Of a DNA stretch of 26,934 bases, positions 3,777 to 26,454 are shown piece after piece. The stretch lies in NCBI RefSeq assembly GCF_006345805.1, contig NW_021836078.1:1-26934 (forward strand), in the 5' to 3' direction. The stretch comes from Octopus sinensis (taxonomy: Eukaryota). Made by a program: the position numbers and the translations under genes. Numbering within the stretch: position 1 is the stretch's first letter; every line of letters begins with the position of its first letter. A model generated the notes under the pieces. It saw only the letters and a list, made by a program, of their open reading frames with translations. It searched no databases and was not told the origin of the DNA.

Positions 3777-4024
3777 AAATAAGTTTTATAATTTCGCTTT
3801 TCCAATTGAAAACGAATAATGTTGACCTCATAAGAGTTTATAAAACTTCAAGAGAACGTCAAGTAATTCTCATTTGGAACAGTGAAACTCGAAGCAGATA
3901 AAGCTATAAATTATAGCGTGTAAATAATGGGCTAAAAAAAAACTTTGGATAGAAAAAGTGGGGTTCGAATCCACATTTTCTGTAAACATGAGCGTAAAAA
4001 TGAATGAAAAAATTAATCAATATA

Positions 4025-4219
4025 CCGTAATTTCCGGCAAAGAAGTCGACGTAGTATATAGGGTAAACATGTAGTACAAACATTGACGCATCATCACTCT
4101 CCTTTCAAATCCTGCTGTATTTCAAGCGGTGTTTTCGGACTTCAAAATCGTTTTGGTGTATAAGTCGACCTACCTTTTTGGGGCTGTAAATTTCGATCTG
4201 AAAAATTCGACTTGTATGG
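4025..4219. mobile_element. Short non-autonomous Tc2/pogo-like MITE
   Basis: TA|CCGTAATTTCCGGC...AAGTCGAC at left; TATAAGTCGACC...AAAAATTCGACTTGTATGG|TA at right (right TIR internally shortened). Same terminal style as the 1299 element. Confidence 0.6.
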
Positions 4220-4828
4220 TATGCTGTTGAGATAATTTATTCGATTGAGGCTACTGATTCATTCCGTCACTACTCCGGTTTCTTAGTTTTTGTGTCACAC
4301 ATTTACTCTGGAGGCAAAGAGATTCTCAAATATACTTTTACCTTGTTAAATTCTTCACCAACCGAAGCTCTGAATAGTTTAGGTTCCTTTTGGTAATCAT
4401 TTCATTACATTTTACATACAATATTGCCAACCCGCTTGGTAAAAGTCATGAATGAACGTCACACAATTTTATTTTATCTTTCTTTGGGTGTTGTGTCGTG
4501 GTTAAGTTAAGCAAGAAACCATTATTTAGCTTCTCTTTCGTTGAATGTCTTGAAAATGTTGGCCTAATTTTTTATTCTCTCTGAAACTGTGCATTCAAAA
4601 AAAAAAAAAAAAAGAAAAGTTAATATTATCAAAAATATTATTTTCATAATTACTATTATCTCAATTTTGAACGAAACAGAAATAATATAACAAGAAGAAA
4701 AAAAAAATGATAACAATATAAAATTGTTGGCCATTTCTTTGAAATACTAAGTTCTGTATTTCCACAAGCAAAAATGTAAGTTTGTGAGAACTCAAGAGGT
4801 TTCCATTGAAATAGAAATTTTGCTATCG

Positions 4829-4829
<1 letters not shown>

Positions 4830-4893
<64 letters not shown>
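4830..4893. repeat. (ATT)n microsatellite
   Basis: Directly visible. Confidence 0.95.
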
Positions 4894-8462: not shown

Positions 8463-9267
8463 AGGCTTGATTGTGTGGTTAAGAAACTCGCTTTACAACA
8501 ACGTGGTTTCAGGTTCAGTGCCACAGCGCGGCAGTTTAGGGAAATGTTTTCTACTATAGCCATGAGCCGATCAATGCCTAGTGAGTGAATTTGGTTGACG
8601 GAAACTGTGTAGAAGGCGACGAGCTGGCAGAAACGTTAGCACACCGGGCGAAATGCGTAGCCGTATTTCGTCTGCCGTTACGTTCTGAGTTTAAATTCCG
8701 CCGAGGTCGACTTTGCCTTTCATCCTTTCGAGGTCGATAAATTAAGTACCAGTTACGCACTGGAGTCAATATAATCGACTTAATCCGTTTGTCTGTCCTT
8801 GTTTGTCCTCTCTGTGTTTAGCCCCTTGTGGGTAGTAAAGAAATAGGTATTTCGTCTGCTGCTACATTCTGAGTTCAAATTCCGCCGAGGTCGACTTTGC
8901 CTTTCATCCTTTCGGGGTCGATTAAAGAAGTACCAGTTACGCACTGGGGTCGATATAATCCACTTAATCCGTTTGTCTGTCCTTGTTTGTTCCCTCTGTG
9001 TATAGCCCCTTGTGGGCAGTTAAGAAATAGGAAACTGTGTAGAAGCCCGTCGTGTTTTCATTTTCGTTCTCCATTTTTCTATCCTAGTGTGTTCTGTCTT
9101 TTAGAAGAGTGTATAGTCGAAACGGAAAAGACGTTTCCTTCTTCCTCACCCCATTCCTTGAGTGTACACTTTTTTCCGTTTTTTTTGCTTAGTTTTGTAT
9201 TTACTCGACTAAAATTCCTCAAGGTGGTGCCCATCATAGCCGCAGTCTAATGACTAAAACAAGTAAT
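8463..9267 (+). mobile_element. Diverged SINE B (CORE-like, tRNA-type head) interrupted by SINE A; tail remnant at 9203-9267
   Basis: Matches the well-preserved copy at 14431-14877 (TGTGTGGTTAAG...GGTTCAGT...CTACTATAGCC...GGAAACTG...GCCCGTCG; tail CTCGACTAAA...GCAGTCTAATGACTAAAACAAGT). Confidence 0.75.
8615..9029 (+). mobile_element. SINE A (tail-1), partially dimeric, with 15-bp TSD
   Basis: Head GGCGACGAGCTGGCAGAAACGTTAGC, body GCCTTTCATCCTTTCG.GGTCGAT.AA...GTACCAG, tail ...CCCTTGTGGG...AAGAAATA. Second body+tail at 8847-9029. TSD GGAAACTGTGTAGAA at 8600-8614 and 9030-9044. Confidence 0.9.
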
Positions 9268-10491: not shown

Positions 10492-10745
10492 TTCTTTCTT
10501 CTAAAGGCACAATCCTTTCTTCTAAAGGCACAATCCTTTCTTCTAAAGGCACAAGGCCTGAAATTTTGGGCGACGGGGTTAGTCGATTAGATCGACCCAG
10601 TATGTGACTGGTACTTGATTTATCGACCCTGAAAGGATGAAAGGCAAAGTCGACCTCGGCGGAATTTGAACTCAGAACGTAGTGACAGGCGAAATATCGC
10701 TAAGGATTTCGTCCAGCGTGCTAACGATTCTGCTAGCTCGCCGCC
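10492..10745 (-). mobile_element. SINE A with tail-2 ending in three 21-bp tandem repeats
   Basis: Reverse complement of the A head/body. Tail unit (+ strand) TCCTTTCTTCTAAAGGCACAA x3 at 10492-10554. Confidence 0.9.
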
Positions 10746-11079
10746 TTAGATCAGATATTAATATCTAATCTGAACATCTAAATATCAGAGATGAACTGTT
10801 AGTTATACGAAAATTTTTCAGACCAGTAAACTCATATTTAGAGTTGTGTTAGTGAACCTAGTGGAAAAGAATGTTGTTACTTTAATTTCGGAAGTAAAGA
10901 ATCTTAATCCGAATACAATCTGATATAATGTAAATAATCAGGAATACAACACTAGATGGTGATTGGCTATCAAGTGTATTCTTTTGGCGGCTATCAAGTG
11001 CAATCTTTTATTCTTTTATTCTTTCACTTGCTTCAGTCATTTTGACTGTGGCAATGCTGGAGCAACACCTAAGGTGGTT
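10701..11079 (+). repeat. Left arm of an inverted duplication (partner 14067-14400)
   Basis: The reverse complement of 14067-14400 aligns over SINE A head + ~220-bp spacer + SINE B tail; this arm has an extra ~45 bp. Confidence 0.9.
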
Positions 11080-11278
11080 TTAGTCGACTCCAGGACTTAT
11101 TCTTTGTAAGCCTAGTACTTATTTCATCGGTTCTTATATCGAACCGCTAGATTACAGGTTACAGGGATGTAAACACATCAACATCGGTTGTCAAGCGATG
11201 GTGGAGGGGGGACACAAACAGACACGAACACACAAATACATGCATACATACATACATGGGTTGGGAAGCAAGCTTCTT

Positions 11279-13295
11279 TATTTCATTAAATTTGCCACAA
11301 GGGCAGCACACATAGAGAAGCTTGAGGGCTAGACAAAGACATTAATGGGATGAATGATGATGATATATGGATGATAAGGATGAGAGAAGACGAAAAGCGC
11401 CCGCCGACTTTCGCTTCTCTAAAACATTGTTCTGTTTTTCTTCTTTTTTTTTTAAACACCATGAGGCAATAAACCTCTTACACAGTTCAAAATTAAAAAT
11501 AAAACACAAACACGAGGCAATAATCCTCTCACTTTTTACATTTTTAGTCTCTTTTTGAGGTAATACACCTCTTCAATTTTTCCGCCCGGCCAGGCTCCTC
11601 GCTTCATCGAAGCACCTGGTCCGTTCCGAACTTAAAGGTTTCAACATAAATCTGAAGGAGTCCTTCGGAAAGGAGTTCGTTATCTTCCACAGATCGTTCT
11701 CCCATATGACCTCCGCAGCCACCTGCGAAGGCCACTCAGGATCCTCCGTGTAGGACAGAAGCCCCTCCCACCGGCACTTCCTTTCAATTTTTTTAATTTC
11801 ATTTTGCAAGGTTCCTCCCTTGTGGAAGAGGACCAAAAATTCCTCCTCCAGCAGCACACCCGCCAAAGGTGAATCGGGACACGCCGGCAGCGTGTCACAA
11901 CCCGCCGGCAATGTCCCGTTTTTCTATTTTCTTTTCTTTTTCCCATGGGCTGCGGGAGGGCGGTGTTCCCTTGCTGTGTCCAGCAGGTCCTCCTTTTCTC
12001 CCGCAGCTCTCGGGTTCTTCGGTGGGCAACCATTGTTGCCCACCTTTCGCTTTCGTTTTTTCGAGGAGGTGGAAACCTCCTCGACATCCTCCTCCTTCTC
12101 TCCCTCCATTGAGGGAGCAGGGAGTGGTTCCTCTGTTAACTGCTCCAGGATCCTATTTTGGTCCTTGGGGCAGTTTTTCTTGATGTGGCCGGTCTCCATT
12201 CACAGGTGACACTTGTGGGGGGGGGCGTCCCTCGAGCATCACCGGATACCTAGACCCGGCCATCCTAAAAAAATCTGGGAAAACCAGACTTTCGGCTGAT
12301 TGGGTCCATAGGGTCAACACAGCTTTTGATCCCTCCCAATCAGCCGCAGGCAAAATTTTTACGTTGAGCAGCTTGGTACTGCTACCACTCAGACCCCGGC
12401 GGATAGAGTCCTCTATCCACTCGGGCTCAATTCCGGGTGGCAAGCCGCAAACCCAAGCCCTCGTAAACTTCTTTCCACAATAACTGGGAAGAAACATTAT
12501 TTCCTTCCCCTCGGGGAAGCTTCTTTGGGGGAGTCAAATAGCAACCAGACCGTTTCAAATTTGACTCCCGTGAAATAAATTTAATAGCTGGCATGTATTC
12601 TGCCAGCTCTTTCAAAATTGTGGCTTTCGGGAAGATGGTTATGATATCGAGCGACTTTGAATAAGTCCTCAACACCACCGTCTTCCTTTCGAGCTCTTTT
12701 AGCCATGATTTGGGAGGTGTTAATTCCCACACTAATATTTCGTTTGCCATTTTTTTTAAAATAAAAAGTTAAAATACAGTTCGTCAATACGTTTTCAAAT
12801 AAAGAAAGGTACACACACACAAAAAAAAAAAGAAAGAAGACACAACAGAAGAGAAGAAAAAATAAAAATAACAGTTCGAATAAAGTTTTTTTTTATTTTA
12901 AATAAATGATAGCTGTGAAAAGAGAGTTCAAATCCAGGCAAAGAAATAAATTTTCGGCCGAAAGGTACTCCTGGCCAATCCTTTTAATCCACGTGGGCAC
13001 AAAAATTTTAAAATACAATTTCTCACAATTATGTGAGACAACACACGTCTCCACCGTAAGGCAGAAAAAAAGCTTCGAATCCAGTAAGGACTCCCTGCCT
13101 GTTCAAAAAAATAAAACCAACAGGCAACAAATCCTACCGGACTCAAAAAGCAAAATGTCTTACCTTACAGTAGAGCGTCTTTCAGTTCAACTTTCGCCAG
13201 CGTGACGACTTCAACAGGTGAGTGAAGAACACTGTTTTTGTTCTTTTTTCTTTTTAGGACGGAGCTCAAGGCTAGACATCTTCTCAGTTCAACCC
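11279..13295 (-). mobile_element. Non-autonomous non-LTR retroelement encoding only ORF1 (L1/Tx1-like, HAL1-type architecture)
   Basis: Perfect 15-bp TSD GGAAGCAAGCTTCTT at 11264-11278 and 13296-13310. ~545-bp 5' region, ORF1, ~295-bp 3' region ending ...CCCTTGTGGCAAATTTAATGAAATA. No RT, endonuclease, LTRs or TIRs. Confidence 0.8.
11573..12750 (-). pseudogene. Disrupted ~390-aa gag-like/ORF1 nucleic-acid-binding protein with CCHC zinc knuckle
   Basis: ORF fragments 12427-12750, 12153-12497, 11924-12199 and 11573-11911 join across frameshifts/stops. ...TRAWVCGLPPGIEPEWI...LEGRPP-KCHL*METGHIKKNCPK is CX2CX4HX4C with the second Cys mutated to TGA, followed by acidic and KKRKRK stretches. Confidence 0.8.
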
Positions 13296-13482
13296 GGAAG
13301 CAAGCTTCTTACCACACAGCCACGCCTGCACTTGCGTATGTATATATATTTTTTCTATCGTGGGTAGAAAGCCAGGTGAGGATGTAAGCAATTGCACCAA
13401 ACTCAATACTTTATTGGTACTTTATTTTATCAATTCCGCAAGGAACAAAAAGGAAGTTGTAAATGTAAACATCTTTTTTACT

Positions 13483-13693
13483 TTTCGCGCAAGATCAACA
13501 ATTTTGAGAGGAAAGGCGGCAAGTCGATTACATCGGCCTTAGTAATTGACTGGTACTTTTTTTTTTTTTATCTATTCCAAAAAGACGATAATCTAAGTTG
13601 ATCTCGACTTGATTTGAACTGAGAGATTAAAAAGTCCGAAGAAAAGCAGCTAGGCATTTTGTCCGACGCTCTAACAATTCTGCCAACTTGCCG
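13483..13693 (-). mobile_element. Old diverged SINE A (tail-3 type)
   Basis: AGTCGATTACATCG...CTGGTACTT...GATTTGAACT...CTAACAATTCTGCCAACTTGCC. Confidence 0.7.
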
Positions 13694-13700
13694 ATGTAAA

Positions 13701-13915
13701 TATTGATTTTCAATTTTGGCACAAGGCCAGCAATTTCGAGGGAGGAGTAAGTCGATTACATCGATCCCAGTGTTCAACTGGTACTTATTCTATCGGTCTC
13801 AAAAGGATGAAAAGCAAAATCGACCTCGGCTGAATTTGAACCCAGAATGTAAAGACGGACAAAATGCTGTTAAGTATTTTGCCCGGCGTGCTAACGATTC
13901 TGTCGGCTCACCACC
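13701..13915 (-). mobile_element. SINE A with tail-3, probable ~12-bp TSD
   Basis: Full head/body; tail (minus strand) ...GAAATTGCTGGCCTTGTGCCAAAATTGAAAATCAATA. Flanks TGCCGATGTAAA (13689-13700) and TGTCGATGTAAA (13918-13929). Confidence 0.85.
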
Positions 13916-14066
13916 TATGTCGATGTAAACGAGATTAGTACTCGAAATATTATTGTCTTAATATCTTGCCTGCTTGCGGGAGATAGCAATAAATAGAACA
14001 TGTTTATTCATTGATTCAGAAGCAAGGAAAATGTCATTTATCACTTTGATTGATTAATGTATTTAC

Positions 14067-14400
14067 AACCAATTTAGGTGGTGCTCCAGCATGGCCACAG
14101 TCAAAATGACTGAAACAAGTAAAAGAATAAAAAGCCAATCACCATCGTGTGTTGTATTTCTGACTGTCTACTTTATAGCAGATTGTATTCGAATTAAGAT
14201 TCTTTATTTCCGAACTTAGAGTAACAATATTCTTTTCCACTAGGTTCACCAACACAACTCTAAATATGAGCCTACTAGTCTGAAAATTTTTCGTATAACT
14301 AACAGTTCATCTCTGATATTTAGGTGTTCAGATTATATATTAATATCTGGTCTGAGGCGGCGAGCTGGCAGAATCGTTAGCACGCTGGACGAAATCCTTA
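14067..14400 (-). repeat. Right arm of the inverted duplication (partner 10701-11079)
   Basis: See left arm. Confidence 0.9.
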
Positions 14401-14430
14401 ATGTATACATTTTCAATATATCGACATATA

Positions 14431-14623
14431 GGTGCAGGAGTGGCTGTGTGGAAAGTAGCTTACTTACCAACCACATGGTTCCGGGATCAGTCCTACTGCG
14501 TTGCACCTTGGGCAAGTGTCTTCTACTATAGCCTCGGGCTGACCAAAGCCTTGTGAGTGGATTTGGTAGATGGAAACTGAAAGAAGACCGCCGAATATAT
14601 ATATATATATATATAATAATATA

Positions 14624-14666
<43 letters not shown>

Positions 14667-14877
14667 ATGTATATGTGTGTGTATATATTTGTGTCTGTTT
14701 TGTCCCCCCCAACACACCGATGTTGGTGTGTTTACGTCCCGGCTCGGCTAAAAAGAACCGATAGAATAAATACTAGGCTTATAAAGAATAAGTCTTAGGG
14801 TCGATTTGCTCGACTAAAAGGCAGTGCTCCAGCATGGCCGCAGTCAAATAACTGAAACAAGTAAAAGAGTAAAAGAG
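14431..14877 (+). mobile_element. Full-length SINE B (tRNA-type head, CORE-like CACCTTGGGCAAGT block, internal TA/TG microsatellite, (TAAAAGAG)n tail)
   Basis: A-box-like TGGCTGTGTGG, B-box-like GGATCAGTCC, core motif resembling MIR/CORE TGACCTTGGGCAAGT; many homologous copies in this window. Confidence 0.85.
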
Positions 14878-15028
14878 TATATATGTCCAATTCTACCTAA
14901 ATGTGAAAAGTACACTATTAAAGCTGTTTTGGACAACACAACATTATTCAGAGAGTGCTGGAAGAGAGTTAAGAGAAGCTCAAATATATTCACGTTTGAT
15001 ATGAATATTGATTCATAATTTAAGTGTT

Positions 15029-15206
15029 CAGACGTGGCTGTGTGGTAAACAGTTTGCTTTCCAGTCACATGGTTCCGGGTTCAGTCACTCTGCATGGTAC
15101 GTTGGGTGAGAGTCTTCTATTATGGCTTCAGGTCACCAAAGCCTCGTGAGCGGATTTAGCTGAGAAAAACTGAATGAACCCCGATGTGTGTGTGTGTGTG
15201 TGTGTG

Positions 15207-15432: not shown

Positions 15433-15717
15433 TTATAATCGATTAAGGAAACAGAAAATGTATTTGGTATTAGTCTTTGTTTTCTACGACAATCGTTTCG
15501 ACTCATTCTGCGACTGTCCCTTATGGGTGGGATCTTTAGCGGGACACTTTATGTATGAATGCACCTGAGGTGACTCAGCCTCCATAGTTGATGCAACACA
15601 ATATGATGCACAAATGCACAGAAACTCACCCATAAGGGACAATTGCAGGATGGGTCGAAACTATTGTCGTACAAAATAAAGACTAACAGCAAATCCATCT
15701 CTGTTTCCTTAATCGGT

Positions 15718-15722
<5 letters not shown>
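15433..15722. mobile_element. Penelope-pLTR-like module with ~100-bp inverted arms (15433-15531 / 15625-15722)
   Basis: Arms are clear reverse complements with substitutions. Contains a hammerhead-like motif and abuts (TA)n. Confidence 0.6.
15560..15673 (+). ncRNA. Degenerate type I hammerhead-like motif with extended stem II
   Basis: UGCAC CUGAGGU GACUCAGCCU [~65 nt] AGGAUGGGUC GAAAC UAUU GUC^GUACA; A9 position not conserved. Confidence 0.55.
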
Positions 15723-15787
<65 letters not shown>

Positions 15788-16076
15788 GTGTGTGTGTGTG
15801 TGGTGTGTGGTGTGTGTTATGTGTGTGTTTGTATATATATATATATTATTAAGAATAGTAGGGAATATAAAATCCAAACTTACAGGGAAAAATTCAATTT
15901 AGCAATACTAAATGAATTTATCACAATATATAATATATGTATAATAAGAGAAAAAATACCTATATTAAGTAATCAATATAAATATAATATATAATATATT
16001 AAAATTTTTTCTAGATGATTTAATATAGATAATATATTTCGCTATCAATTGAATTACTTAATAGAGGTTATTTCTC

Positions 16077-16154
<78 letters not shown>

Positions 16155-16241
16155 TATTTGAGACAAAACCACTATTTTGCAAAAAAAACAAGGGGAAAGA
16201 CTTAATCAATACATAAAATTAATAAATAGTCAAAAAAACCG

Positions 16242-16283
16242 CCACTACAATCGTTCTTGTCTTGATCGACAATCTTCAGGTGG
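16242..16283 (-). ncRNA. Type I minimal hammerhead-like motif
   Basis: Minus strand: CCAC CUGAAGA UUGUC GAUCAA GACAA GAA-C GAUU GUA^GUGG. Stems I and II are perfect; one A of GAAA is missing. Confidence 0.7.
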
Positions 16284-16365
16284 ACTTCCAATAATTCAGT
16301 TATATATATTATATATATATAATATATATGTATATATATATGTATATATATATATTATATAATAT

Positions 16366-16411
<46 letters not shown>

Positions 16412-16427
16412 GTATTATATATATATA

Positions 16428-16503
<76 letters not shown>

Positions 16504-16621
16504 CCCTCCTTTTTCCCTTTTTCTGAGCGCCTAATAATAATACTTTAATTGTTCCACCTCCTAGTGTGTTGTTTTTTCTGTTTTCTCGTTTGGATTAACC
16601 TTATATATATATTATATATAT

Positions 16622-17038
16622 AAAGGAAATGAAGAAAATGCTGACAAAATAATTTAGTAATTTAAGTAATTTAATTAGGTGAAAGTTCTTTTTACCGGTT
16701 GCGCATTTGTTATGCTTATCAAAAGAAATTTTTTTAAGAGAGATAGAGTTTCTTTCTGATAGATTTTCCCTCTTATCTGTGTGTGTGTGTGTGTGTGTGT
16801 GTTTGTATATATATATATATATATTATTAATAATAGTAGGGAATATAAAATTCCAAACTTACAGGGAAAAATTCCTCTTATCAGATAAGAGGAAAAAATC
16901 TATCAGAAAGAAACTCTATCTCTCTTAAAAAAATTTCTTTTGATAAGCATAACAAATGCGCAACCGGTAAAAAGAACTTCACCTAATTAAATACTTAAAT
17001 ACTTAAATTATTTTGTCAGCATTTTCTTCATTTCCTTT
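16622..17038. repeat. ~157-bp inverted repeat (16622-16779 / 16882-17038); second copy ~18187-18591
   Basis: Near-perfect reverse complements; each arm carries a degenerate hammerhead-like motif. Confidence 0.95.
16935..16976 (+). ncRNA. Degenerate hammerhead-like motif (also 16686-16727 -, 18248-18287 -, 18488-18528 +)
   Basis: UUCUU UUGAUAA GCAU AACAA AUGC GCAAC CG GUA^AAAAGAA: topology retained, palindromic ACCGGU stem III, three core substitutions. Confidence 0.45.
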
Positions 17039-17076
17039 TTATATATCACTACTCGTGTTCCACATCTCCTTTTTTA

Positions 17077-17111
<35 letters not shown>

Positions 17112-17113
<2 letters not shown>

Positions 17114-17332
17114 ACTTCCGTCTTTTAGTATGTGACCTCGTGAATACCACCGGCAATTTTTTTTCCTCTGTCCTCCCGTCTCGGGATCTTTCCTTCTCCT
17201 ATGTTTCAGACGAAGAGCTCCGCTCGAAACGTCAAACCCTCCTTCTTCTCTTCTTTCCTGAGCGTCCAATAATACTTTATTTGTTCCACATCCTTGCGTT
17301 GTTGTCTTTTTGTTTTCTTGTTTGGATTAACT
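17112..17332 (+). mobile_element. Penelope-pLTR-like module (copy at 18678-18900; diverged 3' halves at 16503-16600 and 18056-18160)
   Basis: ~220-bp unit between (TA)n tracts with a central minimal hammerhead-like motif. Confidence 0.65.
17203..17237 (+). ncRNA. Minimal type I hammerhead-like motif
   Basis: GUUU CAGACGA A GAGC UCC GCUC GAAAC GUC^AAAC; stem III is reduced to the palindrome ACGU, and U4 is replaced by A. Confidence 0.65.
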
Positions 17333-17763
17333 TTATATATATATATTGTATTGATAATTGTGGTCACTTTAATTTGGTTGTCCTCTAAGAGACGACGATA
17401 CTACTATTTAACTTTAGAAGACATCTCCTCCAGCTGGTTTATTCAGTGCGCTTCTCGGACTCGATATTTATTGCAAGCGGGAAATAACTACTGTCACCCT
17501 AGCTTCGAAACCACCAGGCTGCGTGGTTTCGATTTGTATTGGATCTCTTTGGTGTTGGGCACTCGTTTGCCAGGCATGGCAGCAGTTTAACTTCGCTTGC
17601 AATATATAGAAAGAACCGTGTTATACATCCACTGATTTTGTAATTACGAAACTAGTCCATTAACACACACACACACAGATACGCGCGCACACACACACAC
17701 ATGCGTGCGCGTGCGCCACACACACACACACACACCACACACACATATATTTTCCGATGGCCA

Positions 17764-17823
17764 GATAACTGAAAAGATGGCGGCGTGGATTTCCCCTCGG
17801 CATCCGAAACTCGGAGTTTTATC
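17764..17823 (+). ncRNA. Degenerate type I hammerhead-like motif with long stem II
   Basis: GAUAA CUGAAAA GAUGGCGGCGUGGA..CCCUCGGCAUCC GAAA CUC G GAG UU^UUAUC; stem I GAUAA/UUAUC is perfect. Confidence 0.55.
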
Positions 17824-17865
17824 ATGGCTACCGAATAATTGTCACATATTACATTTAAGAATATT

Positions 17866-17908
<43 letters not shown>

Positions 17909-18021
17909 ATAATATATATATACATATATACATACATACATACATACAACATATAATATATATATATATATATTATATATATATATATATAGATATATAT
18001 ATAATTATATTATATATATAT

Positions 18022-18056
<35 letters not shown>

Positions 18057-18630
18057 CCCCCCTCCTTTTTCCCTTTTTCCTGAGCGCCTAATAATACTAC
18101 TTAATTGTTCCACCTCCTAGTTTGTTTTTTTTCTGTTTTCCGTCCTCGTTTGGATTAACCTTATATATATATATATATATAATAACGGAAATGAAGAAAA
18201 TGCTGACAAAATAATTTAAGTATTTTAAGTATTTAATTAGGTGAAAGTTCTTTTACCGTTGCGCATTTGTTATGCTTATCAAAAGAAATTTTTTTTAAGA
18301 GAGTAGAGTTTCTTCTGATAGAAGATTTTCCCTCTTATCTGTGTGTGTGGTGTGTGTGTTTGTATATATATATATACTTATTAATAATAGTAGGGAATAT
18401 AAAATTCCAAACTTACAGGAAAAATCCTCTTATCAGATAAGAAGGAAAAAATCTATCAGAAAGAAACTCTATCTCTCTTAAAAAAATTTCTTTTGATAAG
18501 CATAACAAATGCGCACCGGTAAAAAGAACTTCACCTAATTAAATTACTTAAATTACTTAAATTATTTTGTCAGCATTTTCTTCTCATTTCCTTTTTATAT
18601 ATCACTACTCGTGTTCCACATCTCCTTTTT

Positions 18631-18677
<47 letters not shown>

Positions 18678-18768
18678 CCACTTCCGTCTTTTAAGTATGT
18701 GACCCTCGTGATACCACCGGCAATTTTTTTTCCTCTGTCCTCCCGTCTCGGGATCTTCCTTCTCCTAT

Positions 18769-18803
18769 GTTTCAGACGAAGAGCTCCGCTCGAAACGTCA
18801 AAC
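18769..18803 (+). ncRNA. Duplicate of the 17203-17237 hammerhead-like motif
   Basis: Identical sequence. Confidence 0.65.
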
Positions 18804-19319
18804 CCTCCTTCTTCTCTTCTTTCCTGAGCGTCCAATAATACTTTATTTGTTCCACATCCTTGCGTTTTTGTCTTTTTGTTTTTTCTTGTTTGGATTAACT
18901 TTATATATATATATTGTATTGATAATTGTGGTCACTTTAATTTGGTTGTCCTCTAAGAGACGACGATACTACTATTTAACTTTAGAAGACATCTCCTCCA
19001 GCTGGGTTATTCAGTGCGCTTCTCGGACTCGATATTTATTGCAACGGGAATAACCTACTGTCACCCTAGCTTCGAAACCACCAGGCTGCGTGGTTTCGAT
19101 TGTATTGGATCTCTTTGGTGTTGGGCCCTCGTTTGCCAGGCATGGCAGCAGTTTAACTTCGCTTGCAATATATAGAAAGAACCGTGTTATACATCCACTG
19201 GTTTTGTAATTACGAAACTAGTCCATTAACACACACACACACAGATACGCGCGCACACACACACACCTGCTTGCGCGTGCGCACACACACACACACACAT
19301 ATATATTTTCCGATGGCCA

Positions 19320-19379
19320 GATAACTGAAAAATGGCGGCGTGGATTTCCACCTCGGCATCCGAAACTCGGAGTTTTATC
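19320..19379 (+). ncRNA. Duplicate of the 17764-17823 hammerhead-like motif
   Basis: Near-identical, with stem II GUGGA/UCCAC better paired. Confidence 0.55.
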
Positions 19380-19419
19380 ATGGCTACCGAATAATTGTCA
19401 CATATTACATTTAAGAATA

Positions 19420-19451
<32 letters not shown>

Positions 19452-21137: not shown

Positions 21138-21621
21138 TGGGTGTGTGGTTAAAAAGCTTTGCTTTGCAACCATGTGGTTTAGGGTTCAGTCTTACTGTTC
21201 AGCACCATGGGCAAGTGGGCAATAGTCTTCTACTTTATCCCCGGGCCGATCAATGCCTTATGAATGACCTTCGTAGACTGTGTGGATGTCTGCCGTATTT
21301 GCATTTATATATGTGTGTGTGTGTTTGTGTGTGTGTGTCTGTGTGTGTATGCATGTATGTATGTATGTATGTATGTATGTATGTATGTATGTATGTATGT
21401 GTGTGTGCATGTGTGTGTCAGTGTGTGTGTTTGTGTGTGTGTGAATGTCTGTTTGTTGATGTCCCTGTAACCTAGCGGTTCGACGAAAGGAAACGATAGA
21501 ATAAGTAGCTGACTTGAAAATAAATACTGGTGCCGATTTGTTCAACTAACCTTCTCAAGTCTGTATTCCAGCATGGCTGCAGTCCAATGACCGAAACTAG
21601 TAAAAGATACAAAATAAAATA
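21138..21621 (+). mobile_element. Diverged near full-length SINE B
   Basis: Head, CACCATGGGCAAGT core, microsatellite, tail ...CCAGCATGGCTGCAGTCCAATGACCGAAACTAGTAAAAGATA. Confidence 0.85.
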
Positions 21622-22596
21622 TAGGATATTTGTGGTATTTCATTGCAGAAAATGTTCTGTAACCGGATGAAAGTCGACGTTATTGAAGGTATCGTTTACA
21701 GTACACGTTAAAAAAAACCCCAGATTCAACCACTTCTGTCCAATACTGTCGCGAAGACGGTTCGTTGTGTTTCAACAGAGAAAATTACAGTTGATGACCA
21801 TCAAACGCATTTTATATCCCGAAAGCGATTTCAGCATTGGTAAATAGATTTCAGCTTCTTTGAAAAGAATTTATGGTTTGGCAATATATATGCCGGGTGG
21901 GTGATGGTGGGAGTCTTATAGTATTCATCAAAAACAGTGTAGTGTTTGAATTGCTTACATTCATTGAGTAATTCATTGTAATAAATATCTTCCTGATAAG
22001 CATTATCTATTTTTCACACTTTTGACTAAGTTCATTACAGTCTATTTTTGACGGACTAAAGATGGAAAACAGACATTAACAAACAACTACTCATTGTTTC
22101 TTAAAGATGAGTTCATCAGAAAAAGAATGAATAGGGCAACTAAATTTCATTGAAAGCATTTACCCTCAATTCATCATAGTTGGTTGTACACACTCCGTTA
22201 ACCTTCAATACATTATACGAGCAAAAGCCCCCCCCCCCAATGGACGGTGCGGAGCTGTCAAACATTTAAACCAAATTTTCTCAAAACAACTTGTCCGACT
22301 GTCCCATAGGCCTCCTCTTTGAGAAACACTGATTTAACCTAAATTTGAGACACCAGCAAAAGAAGAAATAAAGATAGACTTTTTTCTATTCCAAAGAAAA
22401 ACGATTTTATTCACACAAATATGCAACCGAAGAGTTTAAAGTACCAGTAATAATTAGGCTGTTGACTGGGAGAACACAAACATGGTTTAAACAGTAAGCT
22501 TGGAAGGAAAGGAACGTGCCTTTAAGCAGTACAAAGACAACAAAAAATGGAAGGTGCAGTTATGTACAGATTGACGGAAGAAAAGCAGGACAAAAA

Positions 22597-23384: not shown

Positions 23385-23638
23385 ATGGCAAGCTAGCAGA
23401 ACCTCAAAGTTTGAGGTTCTGCTAGCTTGTGTTTGAGGCTCAAATACACCAGGCAAAATGCTTAGCGTTATTTCGTCTGTCTTTACGATCTGAGATCAAA
23501 TTCCCCCGAGATCGATTTTTGCCTTTCATCCTTTTGGGGTCTATAAAATAAGTACCCGTTGAGCCATGAAGTCGATGTAATCGACTCCCCTCTCTCCTCC
23601 GAAGCTGCTGGATCCGTTCCAATATTTGAAAACGTTAT
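23385..23638 (+). mobile_element. SINE A (tail-3 type) with a fold-back insertion in its head
   Basis: Body GCCTTTCATCCTTTTGGGGTCTATAAAATAAGTACC; perfect palindrome at 23389-23429. Confidence 0.8.
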
Positions 23639-23691
23639 TTACCAGAGAATCTTTGGTAAAATTATATCTTTTTGATATTTTGTCAAACTCT

Positions 23692-23840
23692 AAGGTAGCT
23701 AGTTGGCAGAATCGTCAAATTGCTGGACAAAATGTTTAGCGGCATTTCATCCGCCTTTATGTTCTGAGTTCAAATTTCGCTGAGGTCGACTTTGCCTTTC
23801 ATCCTTTCGGAGTTGGTAAACTAAGTACCAGTCGAGCACT
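23692..23840 (+). mobile_element. 3'-truncated SINE A followed by (CA)n
   Basis: TTGGCAGAATCG...GTTCTGAGTTCAAATT...GCCTTTCATCCTTTCGG...AAGTACCAG. Confidence 0.85.
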
Positions 23841-24267: not shown

Positions 24268-24376
24268 AATTTCGATAGTTATAAAATAGTTATAAATTTC
24301 GGGAGTTATAAATTTCGATAGTTATAAATTTCGATAGTTATAAATTTCAATAGTTATAAATTTTCGATAGTTATAA
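24268..24376. repeat. 16-bp minisatellite (AATTTCGATAGTTATA) ~7 copies inside the Helitron
   Basis: Directly visible. Confidence 0.9.
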
Positions 24377-24755
24377 AAACAAAAACTCCGTAGGCCAAAC
24401 ACAGTTACTGACAGCGACCACCAGTGAGTGTGACCGTTATTATTGCATTTTCTTCTTACACTTCATTCATATATTTCTATACATATATACTACATTCATA
24501 TATTACCTATAATAAATTAGCCTTCATAAAGTTCCCCTTCAAAATTCCACGAGGAGTCAGAGTGCGACTGGGTGCTTTTACTTCACAAGCTGCTCTAATG
24601 CGACAACGGCGATTTCAAGTAAGTTTCTGATTCATTATGCTTCATATTTACAAAATAAAACAATTATTCTTCGTCTATTCTAATTTAATATCTAAACAGT
24701 TATATACATGTTGCTGTAATTAATTTACACATTGCATTAATAGACATTTTTTCAA

Positions 24756-25096: not shown

Positions 25097-25102
25097 AATT
25101 TT

Positions 25103-25378
25103 GGAGCAAAGATGCCTCTCCCCCCGACAACCTCTCTCGCCAACCTTCGACAACCTCTCTCGCCAACCTCCGAAACCTCTCTTGCCAACCTCCGACAATC
25201 TCTCTAGACAACCTCCGACAACTTATCTTGCCAACCTCCGACAACCTTGGAACAAAGATGCCTCTCTCCCCAACAACCTTTCTTGCCAACCTCCGACAAC
25301 CTCTCTCACCAACCTCCGACAACATTTTTCACCAGCCTCCGAACACCTCTCTCGCCAACCTCCAACAATCTCTCCCTC
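25103..25378. repeat. ~22-bp minisatellite (CTCTCGCCAACCTCCGACAAC-like) in the Helitron 3' region
   Basis: About 10 degenerate units, with a higher-order repeat GGA.CAAAGATGCCTCTC at 25103 and 25249. Confidence 0.9.
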
Positions 25379-25540: not shown

Positions 25541-26222
25541 GCGTTGAATAGTTGAGAACCTTGCTTTCCAGCAATATGGTCTTGGATTCAGTTCCATTGC
25601 GTGGCATCTTGGGCAAGAGTCTTCTGCTGTAGCTCCGGGTCGATTTGGCGGACGGAAACTGAAGCCTGTCGGCGAGCTGGCAGAAACGTTAGCACGAAGA
25701 GCGGAATGCTTAGCGGTATTTCGTCTGCCGTTACGTTCTGAGTTCAAATTCCGCCGAGGTCGATTTTGCCTTTCATCCTTTCGGGGTTGATAAATTAAGT
25801 ACCAGTTACGCACTGGGGTCGATATAATTGACTGACTCCCTTTGTCTGTCCTTGTTTGTCCCCTCTATGTTTAGCCCCTGGTGGGCAATAAAGAAATAGG
25901 AAACTGAAGTCTGTCGTATACATACATACATACATACATACATACTACATACATACATAAACAAGTGCGCGGTGGGTAGGGGTGTGCGCGCACACGCTTC
26001 CAGGTGTGTGTTTTTGTGTTTATCTCTCCCTCACTGCCTGACAACCGGAGGTGGTTTGTTTGCTTTCCTGCAATTCAGCAGTTCTGCAAAAGAGACTGAT
26101 GGAGTAAGTGTCAGACTTAAAGAAAATTACTTAAAGAAAAAGTACGATTTGTTCGACTAGACTTTTCAAGACGATGTCCCAGCATGGTCGCAGTCCAATG
26201 TCTGAAGCAAGTAAAAGATAAA
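25541..26222 (+). mobile_element. Diverged SINE B interrupted by SINE A
   Basis: Core GCATCTTGGGCAAGAGTCTTCT; tail ...CCAGCATGGTCGCAGTCCAATGTCTGAAGCAAGTAAAAGATA. Confidence 0.85.
25671..25898 (+). mobile_element. Well-preserved SINE A (tail-1) with 17-bp TSD
   Basis: TSD GGAAACTGAAGCCTGTC (25654-25670) / GGAAACTGAAGTCTGTC (25899-25915). Confidence 0.92.
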
Positions 26223-26454
26223 ATATATAACACGCAGGTATGCATTCATTCCTATAGTCAATGGCTATATTTTATAAACTTTGATATAACACTGTAGATC
26301 ACAATTTAGAGAAGTTTATCGTTTAATACTGAACACACTTCTACATGTAAAGCAGTCTTTTCTAATCTAAAGTGTATTCTTGTTGTGGTTTAAGACATTA
26401 TTTGTATTAAAAAGCACCACTTATTTTATTGCGTAGATACGTATATAAAAAAAT

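Follow-up and report, generated by a model that had tools for sequence, protein, structure and literature searches.

The window analysed here is a 26,934-nucleotide (nt) stretch of the Octopus sinensis genome (assembly GCF_006345805.1, contig NW_021836078.1, positions 1 to 26,934 of the forward strand). Between positions 15433 and 17860 it carries fragments of seven repeat families that are dispersed in the genome (A, G, B2, C, D, F, and E), lying between (TA)n/(CA)n tracts, and a direct repeat found by self-comparison extends this arrangement, in that 16306–17860 recurs further downstream (Table 1). The same comparison revealed three long inverted repeats, at 15433–15722, 15926–16100, and 16614–17046. 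Over the whole interval 15433–19420 there are 12 full copies and one half copy of a hammerhead ribozyme motif, five of the 12 inside the 1.55-kb duplicate; an earlier note, made from the sequence alone, had counted about ten. The five positions cited in that note are hammerhead-type motifs of separate families, with cores starting at 15565(+), 16279(−), 16940(+)/16722(−), 17207(+), and 17769(+), and a sixth motif-bearing family, F, had been missed. Its description of the modules as unrelated in sequence holds insofar as the families are separate, but the module Dp is a stub of a relative of D, and the tails of B2 and G are similar when read by eye. As it had stated, no open reading frame (ORF) for reverse transcriptase (RT) or the GIY-YIG endonuclease (EN) was found anywhere in the window. 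The modules are very probably 5′-truncated 3′ ends, or pseudo-long terminal repeats (pLTRs), of several families of Penelope-like elements (PLEs), which is established for D, E, and C and likely for A, B2, and G; F is likely a retrozyme-type derivative. They likely accumulated by successive insertions into (TA)n.

Table 1. Repeat modules and associated features of the interval 15433–19420 (window positions)
Feature	Positions	Strand	Description
Family A	15433–15716	+	Two arms in head-to-head orientation with a common 3′ end, the left one (~15433–15532) inverted; hammerhead at 15560–15673 with loop II of ~65 nt and U at position 9
Family G	15833–16085	−	Extreme 3′ end; ~90-nt tail on one arm, plus inverted arm
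Family B2	16148–16302	−	3′ end; hammerhead 16242–16283
Dp	16503–16605	+	3′-terminal stub of a D-related family, without ribozyme; ~83% to D
Family C	16614–17076	.	Tail-less inverted arm 16614–16779 (−), spacer, arm 16875–17046 (+), 30-nt tail 17047–17076; motifs at 16722(−) and 16940(+) with U3-A8, A13C, and 2-bp stem I
Spacer between C arms	16779–16874	+	Copy of local 15803–15895 (microsatellite junction and G tail), 91.7%
Family D	17112–17335	+	3′ end; minimal hammerhead 17203–17238 (family U4C, window A4)
Family F	17345–17662	−	Part of a 344-bp head-to-tail unit; decayed hammerhead ~17511–17558
Family E	17748–17862	+	3′ end, tail-less form; hammerhead 17764–17823 (window G8A)
Second copy of 16306–17860	17861–19420	+	Dp, C, D, F, and E; from self-comparison

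The canonical hammerhead core was taken as C3 U4 G5 A6 N7 G8 A9, G12 A13 A14 A15.1, and U16.1 H17, and motifs were scored with a descriptor that asked for no fewer than 3 bp in stem I and 4 bp in stem II, together with a stem III segment complementary to itself, and tolerated a single core deviation, with U3-A8 allowed. Across the eight non-duplicated modules of the window, two motifs (D and E) passed, against a mean of 0.025 in shuffled sequences; none of 200 shuffles reached two motifs at this stringency, and 5 of 200 did so at two deviations. Genome searches yielded 351 to 2,174 first-look candidates per module, from which 40 were scored and 30 loci kept; as these are the loci that resemble the window copy most closely, conservation among them is biased upward, and bases at which a family departs from the window copy run against that bias. 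Family counts of bases and passes exclude the window's own loci and eight loci that are second arms or duplicates. Among the other genomic copies, the descriptor was passed by 22 of 28 for D (shuffles, 0/140), 23 of 28 for E (0/140), 20 of 23 for B2 (0/115), and 6 of 26 for A (0/130). C copies pass only with a 2-bp stem I (24/28; shuffles, 1/140), while single F copies pass at chance level (2/28 versus 3/140 shuffles), only the F majority sequence passing. The majority sequences of these six families all fit a minimal type I hammerhead with zero or one core deviation. Stems I and II surround the core in each, with only 2 bp of stem I in C, and the palindromic stem III segments are self-pairing at −1.7 to −16.9 kcal/mol. 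Exact copies of the 29-nt D motif number 5,969 in the genome, compared with zero for the reversed control, and in the flanks of the fetched loci, 380,100 bases in all, there are 23 descriptor matches with many different stems, compared with 2 in shuffled sequence. One contig set, only presumed to derive from RNA, shows high depth over the D motif and was left out of the evidence. The Rfam scans came out negative: none of 114 and none of 14 covariance-model matches, at E values up to 10, was to a hammerhead family.

The downstream duplicate differs from the first copy by eight substitutions and 35 insertion/deletion (indel) events over 1,200 columns, whereas D differs from other genomic copies by a mean of 6.9 substitutions and 1.0 indel; the differences between C and its other copies include 4.1 indels. 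Both duplicate copies share a private A at D position 4, and no contig bridging them was present among the run contigs compared, nor did any read layout cover their junction. The duplication fits either an assembly artefact or a very recent tandem duplication, its differences being typical of long-read error. This half that resembles read error, the four of six window motifs that fail the strict descriptor (A, B2, C, and F), and the lack of Rfam matches could together be taken to mean that the motifs arose by chance in low-complexity sequence or are products of misassembly. Such an origin is extremely improbable given family-level pass rates far above those of shuffles and the thousands of exact D cores. 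In addition, 17426–17660, the F stretch of the first copy, lies on one contig in each of three runs from three studies, with 0, 0, and 1 differences. The duplication alone, not the motifs, may be artefactual.

D, E, and C are identified as PLE 3′ ends because longer genomic copies run upstream into ORFs with an RT thumb and a GIY-YIG domain, which bears out the PLE reading of the earlier note. In other genomic copies, D extends 5′ through a CA-rich 3′ untranslated region (UTR) of 2.1–3.0 kb, and upstream of a marker within this UTR an RT-thumb/CX4CxxC/GIY-YIG ORF was found in 14 of 30 loci. Among 14 D-related loci fetched at length, 13 of them picked for showing the ORF and one a tandem locus without it, the ORF is followed by D on the same strand, 2.1–3.0 kb apart, in nine. 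For C, one complete locus with the ORF upstream on the same strand, L340, reads (TA)n, tail, inverted arm, 5′-truncated ORF, UTR, tail-less C, and (TA)n, and its ORF contains YLDD, CX4CxxC, and GIY-YIG (Pfam E = 1.9e-6). The end of an ORF lies 0.5–1.2 kb upstream of E on the same strand in 19 of 30 loci, and homologs of this ORF carry YRDD and YVGLT motifs. We take these motifs to be of Nematis type, and E presumably represents a second PLE clade, for which the label Nematis-like is used. The D- and C-linked ORFs have a CX2-5CxxC between RT and EN; D and C are provisionally labelled as 3′ ends of Neptune-type PLEs, the clade labels being drawn from motifs. An intact 782-aa ORF (RVT_1 E = 1.1e-7), with 31% identity to the D-linked and 55% to the C-linked ORF, belongs to an element of another family that ends in a U3-A8 hammerhead when read by eye, with a tail in one copy and not in another.

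Further PLE loci were encountered during these searches. Loci L250–L252 contain several open 782-aa Neptune-type ORFs with ~90% identity to the query fragment, a 3′ U3-A8 hammerhead, and an optional tail, and this level of identity suggests recent activity. PLE ORFs near D (L184) and near E (L187/L033) were considered as partners and rejected, since they belong to other families; the many intact PLE ORFs that a genome search with them retrieved have ends unlike the window modules. In L187 (reverse complement 3800–4890), an RT fragment of one PLE family is joined through a short hairpin to the E 3′ UTR, a join that is likely a template-switch chimera. Loci L263 and L264 (G000 C15 and C29) carry PLE ORFs of 1,044–1,120 aa whose N-terminus is rich in Asn, together with an inverted 5′ copy. 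Locus L344 (G000:C14:23656500-23664500), with an N gap inside, consists of tandem 2.5-kb copies of the D 3′ UTR with no ORF match, and is a possible non-autonomous D derivative.

The anatomy of the insertions points in the same direction. Of 28 other C copies, 23 are accompanied on the 5′ side by an inverted partner, which in each of the 23 pairs ends 30 nt before the tailed arm would, the main arm having been selected with the tail included in the query; the remaining five have no partner within 700 nt. The spacer between the arms varies from 0 to about 400 nt. B2 elsewhere in the genome usually occurs as inverted pairs. In E, a tail of ~65–70 nt is present in 10 of 28 copies; tails also occur on B2 and G copies and, read by eye, on A, while none was seen in 28 copies of D. 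A (TA)n tract follows the 3′ end in 28/28 copies of D, 26/28 of C, 21/29 of G, 15/28 of E, and 11/23 of B2, against a background of 75/885 and with tailed copies scored as misses, in keeping with the microsatellite targeting claimed by the earlier note. The window's C insertion also gives a relative order. Its spacer copies a nearby microsatellite/G junction that is found at none of 29 other G loci; therefore, G was likely there before C, and the spacer DNA was probably taken up during the insertion of C.

Alternatively, the modules with inverted arms (A, G, B2, and C) could be miniature inverted-repeat transposable elements (MITEs) or foldback DNA transposons that integrated at TA, with the hammerhead-like motifs incidental. 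The length of these arms and the TA that bounds them at each end, the many C copies with an almost fixed, spacer-less junction, and the absence of a visible ORF for A or B2 suit this explanation. MITEs, however, have equal terminal inverted repeats, fixed ends, and no RT partner, and C does not fit this description: its arms are unequal with the tail at one end only, spacers vary and single-arm copies occur, and L340 places a 5′-truncated RT/GIY-YIG ORF between the same arms. A MITE origin is accordingly very improbable.

Family F differs in organization. Its 344-bp units are arranged head to tail and mostly end at the same 3′ position; 17 of 30 loci are longer than a single unit, and the arrays seen reach about two units at most. 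Its type I hammerhead and lack of an ORF make it resemble non-LTR (long terminal repeat) retrozymes, and its unit size falls within the 150–450 bp of retrozymes in PMC7229834. Extending this likeness to most modules, as independent retrozymes amplifying as small circular RNAs, is improbable: D, E, and C, truncated at varying points, reach 5′ into long UTRs and ORFs and show no module-length tandem units, and F itself is old, its copies ~80% identical and singly failing the descriptor. The retrozyme reading offered in the earlier note is probably true of F alone.

Several points weigh against interpreting the modules as PLE 3′ ends. The long D loci were pre-selected, the ORF having already been seen in them; the ORF link of C comes from one locus; and that of G is one suggestive, degenerate locus. 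No ORF was found within 1.5 kb of A, B2, or F (30 loci each). The ORF fragment linked to E and two homologs of it had no Pfam match, and the fragment lacks a strict CX2-5CxxC. TA adjacency is weak for A (6/26) and F (9/28). In predicted monomer folds, stem I has support in E and F and partial support in D; A, B2, and C give it poor support and prefer other pairings, with a stem I probability of at most 0.12.

No window copy has a fully canonical core, as the earlier note had observed, but its uniform deviation resolves into private and family-fixed changes. The majority cores of E and B2 are canonical, and their defects in the window are private: G8A in E (G8 in 26 of 28 others) and, in B2, one A missing from GAAA (A15.1 present in 20 of 23 others). 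At position 4, D has C in all 28 other copies (U4C) and the private A in the window; F has C in 16 of 28. U3-A8 and C13 are found in 28 of 28 C copies and U9 (A9U) in 24 of 26 copies of A, which is an old family. The window G copy is truncated before its hammerhead-like motif, which was read by eye in longer copies (L288). The hammerhead copies of the window are likely inert and decayed. Another family-level core variant, a D-like hammerhead with A6 changed to U, occurs at many loci (L269, L331, L333, L335, and flanks).

PLE anatomy as found here is also described in PMC8557442 and PMC4209133. The PLE hammerheads of PMC4209133 share the CUGANGA/GAAA-palindrome-UH layout with a short stem I, and also dual motifs 100–700 bp apart on opposite strands and a predominance of solo truncated copies; D shares with them the extra base between positions 9 and 10.1 and the G10.1-C11.1 pair, and C the U3-A8 variant. 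The family-fixed U4C (D and F), A13C (C), A9U (A), and U10.1-A11.1 (B2) are not among the features described in the consulted portions of that paper, and the word 'Octopus' is absent from the supplement text searched. Compared with Neptune-clade EN-containing PLEs (Craig et al. 2021, PMC8557442), the families here share the C-terminal GIY-YIG after RT, the CX2-5CxxC linker, 5′ truncation, an inverted 5′ copy, an optional tail, (TA)n targets, and a hammerhead near the 3′ end; D differs in its long CA-rich 3′ UTR, and E, B2, and G carry tails of about 65–90 nt instead of 30–40. The Poseidon element PAc of Anolis (Frangieh et al. 2024, PMC11167929) likewise has an AT-rich target and a hammerhead in its pLTR, but belongs to a different clade. 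For PAc, the tail is explained by two RT start sites, with both strands cut and extended; the ribozyme depends on protein, and insertion in vitro does not require it. F shares its unit size and head-to-tail arrangement, type I hammerhead, and absence of an ORF with non-LTR retrozymes (PMC7229834; bioRxiv 10.64898/2026.07.22.740005), from which it differs in its short, old, and decayed arrays. U4C and U3-A8 are known natural hammerhead variants (PMC3088659); a literature search for A13C, A9U, and U4C returned only that paper, which of the three has U4C alone, and Lunse et al. 2017, on PLE hammerhead variants, may cover them. No dedicated paper on octopus or cephalopod PLE hammerheads was found in a search outside which most subscription journals lay, and the word 'ribozyme' is absent from a 2026 octopus repeat annotation.

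The favored reading of the modules as PLE 3′ ends would involve the following course. An autonomous element elsewhere in the genome, such as those whose ORFs were observed, would supply the RT and GIY-YIG protein, which, by analogy with the in vitro work on PAc (PMC11167929), would nick AT-rich DNA on both strands. The element RNA may then be copied from two start sites 30–90 nt apart, as that work implies, and two start sites would generate one tailed arm and one inverted, tail-less arm, the arm pattern itself being observed. Early stalling would leave only the last 100–300 nt, hammerhead included. The hammerhead would thus travel as a passenger of the pLTR; by comparison with PMC4209133 and PMC6765202, it is predicted to cleave slowly as a dimer through the palindromic stem III, and probably only with help from the protein. 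That the PAc ribozyme is dispensable for insertion in vitro (PMC11167929) fits the success of families with weakened cores.

Elsewhere in the window, 2377–2868 (−) contains a DDE_1 (pogo/Tigger-type) transposase fragment (Pfam E = 1.4e-5), and 11573–12768 (−) contains GC-rich, frameshifted reading frames that have no Pfam match and resemble a remnant of a retroelement ORF1/gag with a possible zinc knuckle. Many copies of two or more kinds of repeats resembling short interspersed nuclear elements (SINEs), 70–90% alike and some in a 184-bp tandem, are located at 8472–9037, 10548–11252, 13463–15178, 21138–21622, 23446–23840, and 25560–26230, and minisatellites of 16 bp and 23/45 bp at 24268–24378 and 25101–25374.

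At most three of the window's families co-occur at any of 184 other loci, a count limited to those families, so the locus is not thereby exceptional. With the system already known, the locus itself is ordinary; its families are new hammerhead-bearing PLE families. Minimal hammerheads are very abundant in this genome. The ones in the window escape Rfam, and the short inverted ends of PLEs are readily mistaken for MITEs or SINEs. It is unlikely that C carries a working hammerhead. Its core, U3-A8 with A13C and a 2-bp stem I, had no counterpart in the literature searched and is shared by all 28 copies of a young family with an ORF link; cleavage could be rescued by dimerization or by the element's own protein. 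If it works, C together with the abundant U4C and with A9U would form a natural allelic series of the core bases that a protein-assisted ribozyme can lose. The converse, a dead ribozyme in a family that nonetheless spread, would mean that PLEs can do without cleavage for their mobility in vivo. Core variants fixed within families that have spread recently would provide constructs for asking whether PLE hammerheads must cleave.

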